From a virus (Duplodnaviria > Caudoviricetes), in IMG/VR virus record IMGVR_UViG_3300020388_000692, positions 1 through 54,915 of that record: DNA of 54,915 nt, one strand, 5' to 3'. The number at the start of each line of letters is the position of its first letter. The first letter of the stretch is position 1. A program made the translations under genes and the position numbers. Positions 21,590 to 30,688 of the stretch are shown here, piece after piece. The notes below the pieces were generated by a model that was not told where the DNA came from, made no database searches, and worked only from the letters and a program-made list of their open reading frames with translations.

Positions 21590-21712
21590 GGTTTAATCCG
21601 TAAGAGTTTGCTTCATAATATTAAATTAGGGGTTTCAGATCATTGGCAGTATTTTAATTCTATACTATCTAGTCAGCGTATGCTAACTTAATGAAGTTAG
21701 TGTAATGTTTAC

Positions 21713-21741
21713 AAAAAAAGACAGGCAGTAAAGCCTGTCTT
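21713..21741 (-). terminator. rho-independent terminator after the DUF4278-like gene
   Basis: AGACAGGC-TTTACT-GCCTGTCT-T-run. Confidence 0.85.
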
Positions 21742-21747
21742 TAAAAT

Positions 21748-21915
21748 TCACTTAGCGTAGGTCTTACCACGATAACAGAATGTACCGTGGGTTTCCTTGC
21801 TTTCTACACAACGAGTATCATACTCAACACCACGATAGGTGGTGTGAAGAACTTGTGCGTTGTGGATTGCAGATGCCTTTTGGATCTGCCTGCGAATCAG
21901 GTTTAAGGTGTTCAT
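21748..21915 (-). CDS. DUF4278-like (IF17 N-terminus-like) 55-aa protein
   Basis: MNTLNLIRRQIQKASAIHNAQVLHTTYRGVEYDTRCVESKETHGTFCYRGKTYAK; two YRGxxY motifs; AGGAG SD; downstream of glnA-like RNA. Confidence 0.8.
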   Translation of the reverse strand: MNTLNLIRRQIQKASAIHNAQVLHTTYRGVEYDTRCVESKETHGTFCYRGKTYAK

Positions 21916-21951
21916 AGTAGGTTACTCCTAAAGTAGTTGGATTTTTAGGTC

Positions 21952-22177
21952 CGTTCCTTTAGTCGTTTGCGTCCCAAGGACATTCAGGAGTTGCCTCCTG
22001 AATTGTCAAAACTATTTCATCTTTTATAGCACCCATCATTTCTTCCTGTCTTTTGACACGCTGAATAATTTCAGATGCATCTTCACAGGTGATAGTTGCG
22101 TATAATAATAAATCAATCATGGGATGAACGCTCCGTTCCGCGACTTACTTGCGTCCCGCCCTAGAGCGGGATGAACG
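21952..22177 (-). ncRNA. double glutamine-riboswitch-like (glnA motif) RNA
   Basis: Two copies of CGUUCAUCCC...GGGACGCAA...GAACGG; E-loop strand AAGUA; complementary AGUCG/CGACU; begins at the promoter start site. Confidence 0.75.
21959..22120 (-). CDS. 53-aa protein nested in the riboswitch (MIDLLLYATITCEDASEIIQRVKRQEEMMGAIKDEIVLTIQEATPECPWDAND)
   Basis: Hand-translated ATG-to-TAA ORF; both ends lie in aptamer helices. Confidence 0.65.
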   Translation of the reverse strand: MIDLLLYATITCEDASEIIQRVKRQEEMMGAIKDEIVLTIQEATPECPWDAND

Positions 22178-22185
22178 ACAGGTCT

Positions 22186-22214
22186 AGTATAGACCATTAT
22201 CTCTATTTAGTCAA
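22186..22214 (-). promoter_or_regulatory. sigma70 promoter for the riboswitch leader, with overlapping CTAAATA late-like site
   Basis: TTGACT-17 nt-TATACT, ending about 8 nt before aptamer 1. Confidence 0.75.
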
Positions 22215-22398
22215 GCAGTTTTGTATCATCAGATACAGAATTTTCCTTTAACAGGTTGGAGACTACCTTCTCCGTACCGTCCATAACCTTGATCTGATAC
22301 AGGTTGGACTTCATATACTTTTTAATTTTCTTGTACTTCTTCTTGACTTGCTCGATACCATCAAAGTTGATATCAACATTCAGACTCTTGTCACTCAT
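22207..22398 (-). CDS. hypothetical protein
   Basis: 63-aa Lys-rich ORF, ATGA-coupled. Confidence 0.65.
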   Translation of the reverse strand: MSDKSLNVDINFDGIEQVKKKYKKIKKYMKSNLYQIKVMDGTEKVVSNLLKENSVSDDTKLLD

Positions 22399-29444: not shown

Positions 29445-30524
29445 TCAACCGACGCTAGGAGCAATCAGAGCCACAGGAGTGGACTCAGCAGCAGCGAGGT
29501 CGAGTGGGAAGTTGTGAGCATTACGCTCATGCATTACTTCCATTCCGAGACCTGCACGGTTCAATACGTCAGCCCAGGTATTGACTACACGACCTTCGTT
29601 TTCGAGGATCGACTGGTTGAAGTTGAAACCGTTGAGGTTGAATGCCATGGTGCTTACGCCCAGGGCGGTGAACCAAATACCCACGACGGGCCATGCAGCA
29701 AGGAAGAAGTGCAAGGAACGTGAGTTGTTGAATGATGCGTATTGGAAGATCAGGCGACCAAAGTAACCGTGTGCGGCGACGATGTTGTACGTCTCTTCTT
29801 CTTGACCGAACTTGTAACCATAGTTCTGGGACTCGCTCTCAGTTGTTTCACGAACAAGTGAGGAAGTAACGAGACTTCCGTGCATAGCAGAGAAAAGAGA
29901 TCCACCGAATACCCCAGCAACACCGAGCATGTGGAACGGGTGCATAAGGATATTGTGTTCTGCTTGGAATACAAGCATATAGTTAAAAGTACCAGAGATA
30001 CCAAGAGGCATAGCATCAGAGAAAGAACCTTGACCGAAAGGATATACGAGGAATACTGCACTTGCTGCAGCGACTGGTGCTGAGTAAGCAACCATGATCC
30101 ATGGACGCATACCTAAGCGGTAGGAAAGTTCCCACTCACGACCCATGTAGCAGTAGATGCCGATGAGGAAGTGGAAAATTACGAGTTGGAAAGGACCACC
30201 ATTATACAGCCACTCGTCAAGCGATGCGGCTTCCCAGATGGGATAGAAGTGAAGACCAATTGCGTTGGAAGAGGGAACAACTGCACCAGAGATGATGTTG
30301 TTACCATACATGAGTGAACCAGCGACGGGTTCACGGATGCCATCGATGTCCACAGGGGGAGCAGCGATGAAGGCGACGATGAAGCAAGTAGTTGCTGCCA
30401 ACAGAGTTGGAATCATCAGCACGCCGAACCAACCGACATAGAGGCGGTTATTGGTAGAAGTTATCCACTCGCAGAAATTCTGCCAACTGGATTGTGATTG
30501 TTGTTGTCTTGAAAGTGTTGTCAT
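29445..30524 (-). CDS. psbA: photosystem II D1 protein, no intron
   Basis: NRLYVGWFG...[13 protein letters not shown]; start MTTLSRQ, 359 aa. Confidence 0.99.
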
Positions 30525-30529
30525 TTTTG

Positions 30530-30646
30530 AAAAAGGGTTATGTATGAGTGCGGGGAACACTGATTATAGTATTCCTGACCTACCCTCCAGGTCAGGTATG
30601 AGAGACTGTTGTTTATACACGCTGTTTAGTCTCGGTGAGGCGTGTG
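30530..30646 (-). ncRNA. PhotoRC-II-like structured psbA leader
   Basis: ACACGC/GCGUGU interleaved with GAGACU/AGUCUC; CCUGACCU-GGAGGGU-AGGUCAGG hairpin; lies 5' of phage psbA. Confidence 0.7.
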
Positions 30647-30688
30647 AAGAATAGTTAAGAGATGTGTTGGTCTCGTAACTTACTGACT

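Follow-up and report, generated by a model that had tools for sequence, protein, structure and literature searches.

The closest described counterparts of the locus analysed here are cyanobacterial, where the link between glutamine riboswitches and DUF4278 genes is already known (PMC6212724). In picocyanobacteria, for example in the Prochlorococcus MED4 gene reported by Klahn et al. 2018 (PMC6212724), a small YRG-repeat protein is encoded directly behind a glutamine-II aptamer (Downstream-peptide, RF01704) and an NtcA-type box lies at the promoter, an arrangement to which the phage locus is similar. The second counterpart is the leader of Synechocystis gifB, the gene of IF17, which contains a type 1 glutamine riboswitch (RF01739) acting as an ON switch. 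Like the phage leader it has P1, P2, P3 and an E-loop, its product contains DUF4278, and the concept of an alternative helix that masks the Shine-Dalgarno (SD) sequence has been proposed for it (PMC6212724). According to the portions of this literature considered here, both host riboswitch types have been measured as ON switches and an alternative structure occluding the ribosome binding site (RBS) has been postulated, the step from ligand binding to translation being only postulated so far.

Glutamine riboswitches are also known in T4-like cyanophages (PMC9964418; PMC9004378). The glnA RNA of the T4-like cyanophage S-CREM1 is a 99-nt hit to RF01739 with 44.0 bits (PMC9964418), and tandem glnA RNAs have been noted earlier (Weinberg 2010, PMC2864571). 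The RNA family and the tandem arrangement are the same as at our locus, but a downstream DUF4278 gene, an expression platform and a nested gene are not described in the parts of those two reports considered here. Likewise, the portions covered of the literature on cyanophage glutamine riboswitches, DUF4278 and IF17-like or glutamine synthetase (GS) inactivating factors yielded no description of a phage DUF4278 peptide, its expression platform or a nested gene.

The cyanophage cassette described here is a variant of the known glutamine-riboswitch/DUF4278 arrangement, with a masking platform that is comparatively well supported. In contrast to the host glutamine-II cassettes, whose aptamer has the pseudoknot form, the phage aptamer is a glutamine-I-like three-way junction with two interlocked cores, and the phage SD abuts the masking helix. 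In two host genomes, one Synechococcus and one Prochlorococcus, glutamine-II riboswitches (51-71 bits) precede DUF4278 ORFs by ~27 nt. Most host proteins seen have three repeats, whereas the phage protein has two YRG repeats and a phage-specific N-terminal helix. With respect to gifB, the masking strand of the phage originates from within the aptamer core, whereas that of gifB, as far as the published account was covered, is proposed to consist of bases at and after the 3' end of P1. Hundreds of natural cyanophage variants offer comparative evidence for a concrete anti-SD helix from the aptamer core.

The cyanophage cassette

The window, that is the whole stretch of 54,915 nucleotides analysed, is a fragment of a T4-like cyanomyovirus. 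Its gene content includes two genes of the Photo_RC family (photosynthetic reaction-centre), thyX, phoH, talC, purM, purC, gp32 and gp59. Region 21713-21951 forms the output end of a cassette that is conserved in T4-like cyanophages and consists of promoter, aptamers, a nested ORF, a gene for a 55-aa protein and a terminator, every element being located on the minus strand. This region matches 428 phage records, of which 352 bear the name Synechococcus phage, and 587 relatives of the 55-aa ORF were confirmed in viral contigs. Isolates with the cassette include ACG-2014d and S-SM2.

The comparative set comprises 80 viral loci obtained via the protein and further loci obtained via a DNA pattern from the aptamer 3' half. 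It contains 139 distinct platforms (GACGC to AUG), 128 of which were aligned with the window as the first sequence, and the downstream YRG peptides among the collected loci fall into three classes. A smaller peptide alignment run against genome contigs returned only 6 loci, several of which are probably phage contigs in host bins. Cassettes of the phage type are also carried by a 189-kb contig (Prochlorococcus single-cell assembly) and a 194-kb contig (Synechococcus MAG), both of which probably represent phage genomes that were binned together with the host. Parts of the cassette are also carried by metatranscriptome contigs from two studies, one of them identical to 21747-21952, in which start, end and strand are not readable and DNA carry-over is possible.

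Two interlocked aptamer cores

The placement of the 55-aa gene behind a glutamine riboswitch, as originally predicted, is supported by our analysis, in which P1, P2, P3 with the AGUA/GAA E-loop and the linchpin pair could all be located. The 5' half of the outer aptamer (22141..22177) contains the P1 5' strand CGUUC (22177..22173), the P2a hairpin (22171..22154), CGCAAGUA and the P3 5' strand AGUCG (22145..22141). The 3' half (21951..21975) is formed by the P2b 3' strand GGGA, CGCAAA, the P3 3' strand CGACU (21965..21961), AAA, the P1 3' strand GAACG (21956..21952) and the linchpin G 21951. The 3' strand of the E-loop is AAA in the window and GAA in other phages. G 21951, which follows GAACG, occupies the position of the partner in the long-range pair and sits in a small hairpin in the unbound fold. 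The phage linchpin is C:G rather than G:C; the long-range pair is reported as C19:G41 for glutamine-II and as G23-C60 for glutamine-I in the accounts considered, and the phage orientation is therefore that of type 2, in which it differs from gifB.

Only unit A of the aptamer (22179..22130) is matched by the Rfam Glutamine model (RF01739) in the window, with 26.2 bits against a gathering score of 35 bits, because the 162-nt ORF in P2b blocks the model from extending across the whole aptamer. Where P2b is short, as in some relatives, unit A supplies the 5' half and unit B the 3' half; joined via the shared P3, these reach 39.3, 41.0 and 43.6 bits, and the cut-off is passed only in this interlocked register. 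Neither unit has its own P3 in 92 of the 128 distinct leaders, including that of the window. Instead, AGUCG after AGUA in unit A (22145..22141) forms P3 with CGACU in unit B (21965..21961), with all five pairs present in 90 of the 92 type-1 leaders and the compensatory change AGUCA/UGACU in 3. In the remaining 36 leaders P3 is not shared and each unit has a local mini-P3 of its own (AGCCGACU), which looks like the ancestral side-by-side form.

The inner strands form a hairpin of their own, GAACG-GAG-CGUUC (22126..22138), which is indicated both by covariation and by the minimum free energy (MFE) fold of the full leader. The nested ORF has its GGAG SD within the loop and stem of this hairpin. 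Among the 128 distinct leaders, GGAACG/CGUUC is found in 123 and a double change in 5 (GCAACG/CGUUG in 4 and GCAACC/CGUUG in 1), with no single change. The shared P3 and the inner-strand hairpin together imply that one aptamer core is nested in the other and that P3 is common to both. The helix closing P2b, UCCC (22124..22121) with GGGA (21975..21972), has 4/4 pairs in all 128 leaders, and compensatory variants are present as UCCU/AGGA in 21, UCCG/CGGA in 2 and CCCC/GGGG in 1.

The loop of P2b accommodates a nested ORF of 53 aa (21959..22120), which matches phrog_504 with an E-value of 7.6e-21 and ends at a UAA stop codon (21961..21959) within the masking helix described below. An intact nested ORF of 49-66 aa, which starts at an AUG directly behind CGUUCA and terminates within that helix, is present in 100 of the 105 leaders with an insert of more than 100 nt, and a short hairpin takes its place in 23 of the 128 leaders. 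The stop codon is 43 nt away from the AUG of the 55-aa gene. The last codons of the nested ORF (WDAND, stop) are dual-coded with the aptamer 3' half. The nested peptides are highly divergent (100 distinct sequences in 100 leaders), with two cysteines and the RNA-imposed C-terminus retained.

The helix that masks the Shine-Dalgarno sequence

An alternative helix of the kind expected for an SD-sequestering platform, which draws on bases of the aptamer core and on the SD region, is conserved and covarying. The 5' strand of this helix, referred to as helix H, is CUAAAG (21957..21962), which shares bases with the 3' strand of P3, with the E-loop strand and with the nested ORF's stop codon. Its 3' strand is CUUUAG (21928..21933), the final two bases of which are the first two of the AGGAG SD. 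Across the 128 distinct platforms 97.1% of 767 cells are paired, compared with 21.9-75.3% for slid registers of the same helix, and the observed values were reached by none of 500 shuffles. The middle pair is A-U in 52, G-C in 41, G-U in 30 and another combination in 5 of the 128 platforms; each of the A-U, G-C and G-U types is found in all three downstream peptide classes, and A is opposite C in 0 of 52. All six pairs are complete in 132 of 139 distinct platforms. This A/G position is also constrained from elsewhere, as it is the middle base of the nested ORF stop codon (UAA or UGA) and belongs to the E-loop.

On a tree built from 83 class-A coding sequences, a minimum of 22 changes falls on the aptamer-side base. 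An independent-pairs test restricted to well-supported branches was underpowered, with only 5 pairs, of which ~2.8 changed in the same direction and 0 in the opposite direction (p 0.25). Phylogenetic independence of the changes in helix H is thus indicated by the sequences and not formally shown. A possible extension of the helix by C 21965/G 21925 across a tandem G.A is paired in 91.7%, which is uninformative because both sides are conserved for other reasons.

The MFE fold of the window platform consists of helix H and a small hairpin in its loop, GGA (21952..21950) with UCC (21941..21939), and nothing else. Of the MFE folds of the 139 platforms, 126 show helix H in full and 137 show the small hairpin (21939..21952 in the window). 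The stems of the small hairpin covary, occurring as GGA/UCC, GGG/CCC, GGAU/AUCC, GGGU/ACCC and GGC/GCC, and the hairpin takes up the final G of P1 as well as the linchpin G (21951). In 131 of 139 platforms, just two of the four bases of the SD core are paired by helix H. For the window platform, the fold energy of -10 kcal/mol lies within chance of its shuffles (-7.7 +/- 2.3; z -1.0), and RNAalifold returned no consensus structure for the alignment of 128 platforms.

Some relatives carry an extra hairpin of ~30 nt (e.g. a CUCG-GAAA-CGAG stem-loop) inserted in the loop of helix H. It is located between GGAACGG and the SD and is closed by the same GGG/CCC pairs. At the start of the 55-aa gene, AUGAAC (start and codon 2, 21910-21915) is exactly complementary to GUUCAU in the aptamer 5' strand (22171-22176), and the two are paired in the full-leader MFE fold. 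AAC serves as codon 2 of 79 among 83 class-A genes, compared with 91 of 151 for the other Asn codons. It may be that this complementarity serves as a mask of the start codon.

The 55-aa DUF4278-kind microprotein

The 55-aa ORF with its two YRG motifs is present at 21748..21915 (minus strand) and contains TYRGVEY and CYRGKTY, and its AGGAG SD, read from the sequence at 21925..21929, has the AUG (21915) 9 nt downstream; the ORF, its motifs and this SD had been noted in the original prediction. The protein matches phrog_545 with an E-value of 5.4e-34. As far as can be judged from sequence, the ORF is a real cyanophage gene and widely conserved; in phage isolates both small ORFs, this one and the nested 53-aa one, are annotated as "hypothetical protein".

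A repeated YRG motif is a hallmark of the DUF4278 family, and Y27 R28 G29 and Y48 R49 G50 are invariant across 133 sequences. The proposed DUF4278 identity stands at the level of the family, but not on the score of the window protein alone. Residues 25-54 of the latter align to positions 3-34 of the 57 in Pfam DUF4278 (PF14105) with 22.8 bits (E 1.2e-4), which falls below the gathering score of 25.3 bits. A DUF4278 match at E <= 0.01 was obtained for 130 of 133 phage relatives (best 1.7e-7), and hhalign of the phage alignment against five host DUF4278 proteins, each above the Pfam cut-off and originating from one MAG (Synechococcus) or one single-cell assembly (Prochlorococcus), gave a probability of 94.6% and an E-value of 6.7e-8.

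In the AF2 model (pLDDT 82) a helix spanning residues 3-23 is followed by two beta-hairpins with the YRG motifs at the turns. Searched by sequence, the PDB contained no match to the peptide at E <= 10, and Foldseek with the model gave none there at E <= 0.001 (top hit E 2.9). Matches in the ESM Atlas are unnamed phage clusters only, together with one cluster in which 13% of members carry DUF4278. His18, His24, Cys35, His43 and Cys47 are kept in most peptides of the 55-aa class. These residues could be a metal site, the cysteines being absent in some members.

The 55-aa protein is best read, from these sequence comparisons, as a phage copy of the host DUF4278 microproteins that are under glutamine-riboswitch control. 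Abundant ocean phages would accordingly carry their own copy of a glutamine-controlled host microprotein, and its retention under control by nitrogen status argues for importance during infection.

An IF17-like inactivator of GS, as which the protein had been proposed, is unsupported by its architecture. DUF4278 corresponds to the N-terminal part of IF17 (PMC6212724), which is dispensable for inhibition and promotes stability; GS inhibition is carried by the IF7-like C-terminal moiety with its arginine and lysine residues, as described in the sections of the IF17 work considered. The DUF4278 match of the phage protein ends at residue 54 of 55, leaving no such moiety, in which it differs from the product of gifB. 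A function of the phage protein as GS inhibitor is not supported by its sequence, and in the IF17/DUF4278 literature, as far as covered, the action of short picocyanobacterial DUF4278 proteins on GS is left open. Among longer proteins, the homolog search gave none named IF17, and its top hits look like over-extended gene calls. The GS hits in the PDB include Synechocystis GS 3NG0, with no chain named inactivating factor among them. Complex prediction for the peptide with two copies of a marine Synechococcus GlnA gave no verdict in either direction, with a score of 0.01.

Proposed mechanism and alternative readings

From the overlap between aptamer and helix H and by analogy with the hosts, we consider it rather probable that the cassette is a glutamine-ON switch, in which translation is opened by the ligand and helix H with the small hairpin represents the unbound, SD-masking state. 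Without ligand, CUAAAG (21962..21957) would pair with CUUUAG (21933..21928) and cover the first two bases of AGGAG, while enclosing the 3-bp GGA/UCC hairpin, which would sequester the linchpin G 21951 together with the final base of P1. The glutamine-bound aptamer would use the same CU (P3 3' strand) and AAA (E-loop strand) as helix H, and would require the GGA bases of the small hairpin for P1 and the long-range pair. Because the CU, AAA and GGA bases are shared, ligand binding and SD masking should be mutually exclusive, and this exclusivity together with the ON behaviour of the host types leads us to infer that glutamine is the opener. The 55-aa protein would then probably be made only at high host glutamine. 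It is likely that a ribosome terminating at the nested ORF stop inside helix H acts as a second opener and would also unmask the SD. The masking mechanism should be directly testable with few mutants, and the cassette offers a compact system for finding the target of the microprotein.

The original prediction had assigned the masking to a different helix, in which CCUAAA (21949..21944), just after P1, pairs with UUUAGG (21932..21927), and had taken the protein for an IF17-like inactivator of host GS. The two hexamers are present and complementary in the window (21927..21949), bases at or after the P1 3' end of Synechocystis gifB have been proposed to pair with the RBS in the part of that work considered, and DUF4278 is indeed part of IF17. 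However, the pairing is not conserved and is unsupported in relatives, with 71.3% of cells paired over 128 distinct platforms, the outer pair unpaired in 68 of 126 scored sequences and pair-type measures no better than those of shuffles. A 6-bp A/U-rich complement so near the SD is, taken alone, within chance. This helix is also absent from the MFE fold of the window platform, in which CCUAAA is the loop of the covarying small hairpin. As, in addition, the shared domain is the IF17 moiety that is dispensable for inhibition and the IF7-like moiety is absent, we regard this reading as very improbable. The more general idea of an SD-masking expression platform holds, with helix H, which uses the same SD-proximal strand, being the pairing that is backed by covariation.

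Helix H might also be read as a standing part of a glutamine-II-like pseudoknot, equivalent to its stem P2, such that the SD is always partly covered, or more so with glutamine, and the element is no switch or an OFF switch. The order CGUUC ... CUAAAG-GAACG ... CUUUAG does have the topology of glutamine-II P2 around the pseudoknot strand, stem P2 of glutamine-II forms both with and without ligand in the account considered, the linker end CGA-CU is common to phage and host, and the long-range pair of the phage aptamers is of the glutamine-II type C:G. We nevertheless find this quite unlikely, since P3 and the E-loop depend on the CU and AAA bases of helix H, P3 itself covaries, only the P3-containing fold exceeds the Rfam cut-off and the measured behaviour of both host types is ON. 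It is also unlikely, in our view, that output is set mainly by coupling, with ribosomes ending at UAA (21961..21959) opening helix H and glutamine acting only indirectly, by way of how accessible the nested ORF's SD is in the inner hairpin. The frequency with which the nested stop codon falls within helix H in leaders with a long insert and the location of GGAG in the inner hairpin speak for it, but the 23 leaders devoid of a nested ORF retain helix H and its covariation, and the gap of 43 nt between stop and AUG is also against it.

In extension of the glutamine-ON reading, it is a somewhat doubtful possibility that the cassette works as a gate with three inputs, namely NtcA/2-oxoglutarate at the promoter, glutamine at the two interlocked cores that share P3, and ribosome traffic on the nested gene, the last because its stop codon sits in the anti-SD helix. 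During infection the microprotein might in that case replace short-lived host DUF4278 regulators and act on a host nitrogen-assimilation protein, either GS or another partner.

Promoter region, terminator and neighbouring genes

Just 5' of the -35 element lies an NtcA-type box, GTA-N8-TAC (GTATCTGATGATAC, 22223..22236, minus strand). Among 87 distinct promoter regions from relatives, 51 contain an exact GTA-N8-TAC, in most cases 53-61 nt 5' of the first CGUUCA; ~0.03 per region would be expected by chance. That cyanomyovirus genomes carry NtcA sites is known in general terms from the literature considered. Two host DUF4278 genes have an NtcA-type box directly 5' of the riboswitch.

A sigma-70-like promoter, TTGACT-17-TATACT (22186..22214, minus strand), is predicted with 10 of 12 consensus matches. 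Its -10 element is inside a palindrome (22195..22181, GGTCTATACTAGACC), whose arms vary among relatives yet remain complementary. Just 5' of the palindrome, CTAAATAG (22203-22210, minus strand) resembles a T4-type late promoter. If such a late promoter is used, the palindrome would become a 5'-terminal RNA hairpin. The palindrome at the -10 element and the late-promoter-like sequence make the position of the transcription start uncertain.

The strong terminator that had been noted after the 55-aa ORF corresponds to an intrinsic-terminator-like hairpin with a U tract (21711..21742, minus strand), the hairpin itself (21742..21717) having 10 pairs (5 G-C) and a 6-nt loop and being followed by the U run. 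A crude rule detects a hairpin with a U tail behind the gene for 72 of 137 relatives. With a promoter-like site, an NtcA-type box and this terminator, the cassette looks like the self-contained unit that it was suggested to be. The nearby genes purC, purM and thyX named in the same context were found, and talC as well. Elsewhere in the window, a PhotoRC-II RNA (30561-30657, minus strand; 68.2 bits) is located immediately 5' of a photosynthetic reaction-centre gene (29445-30560).
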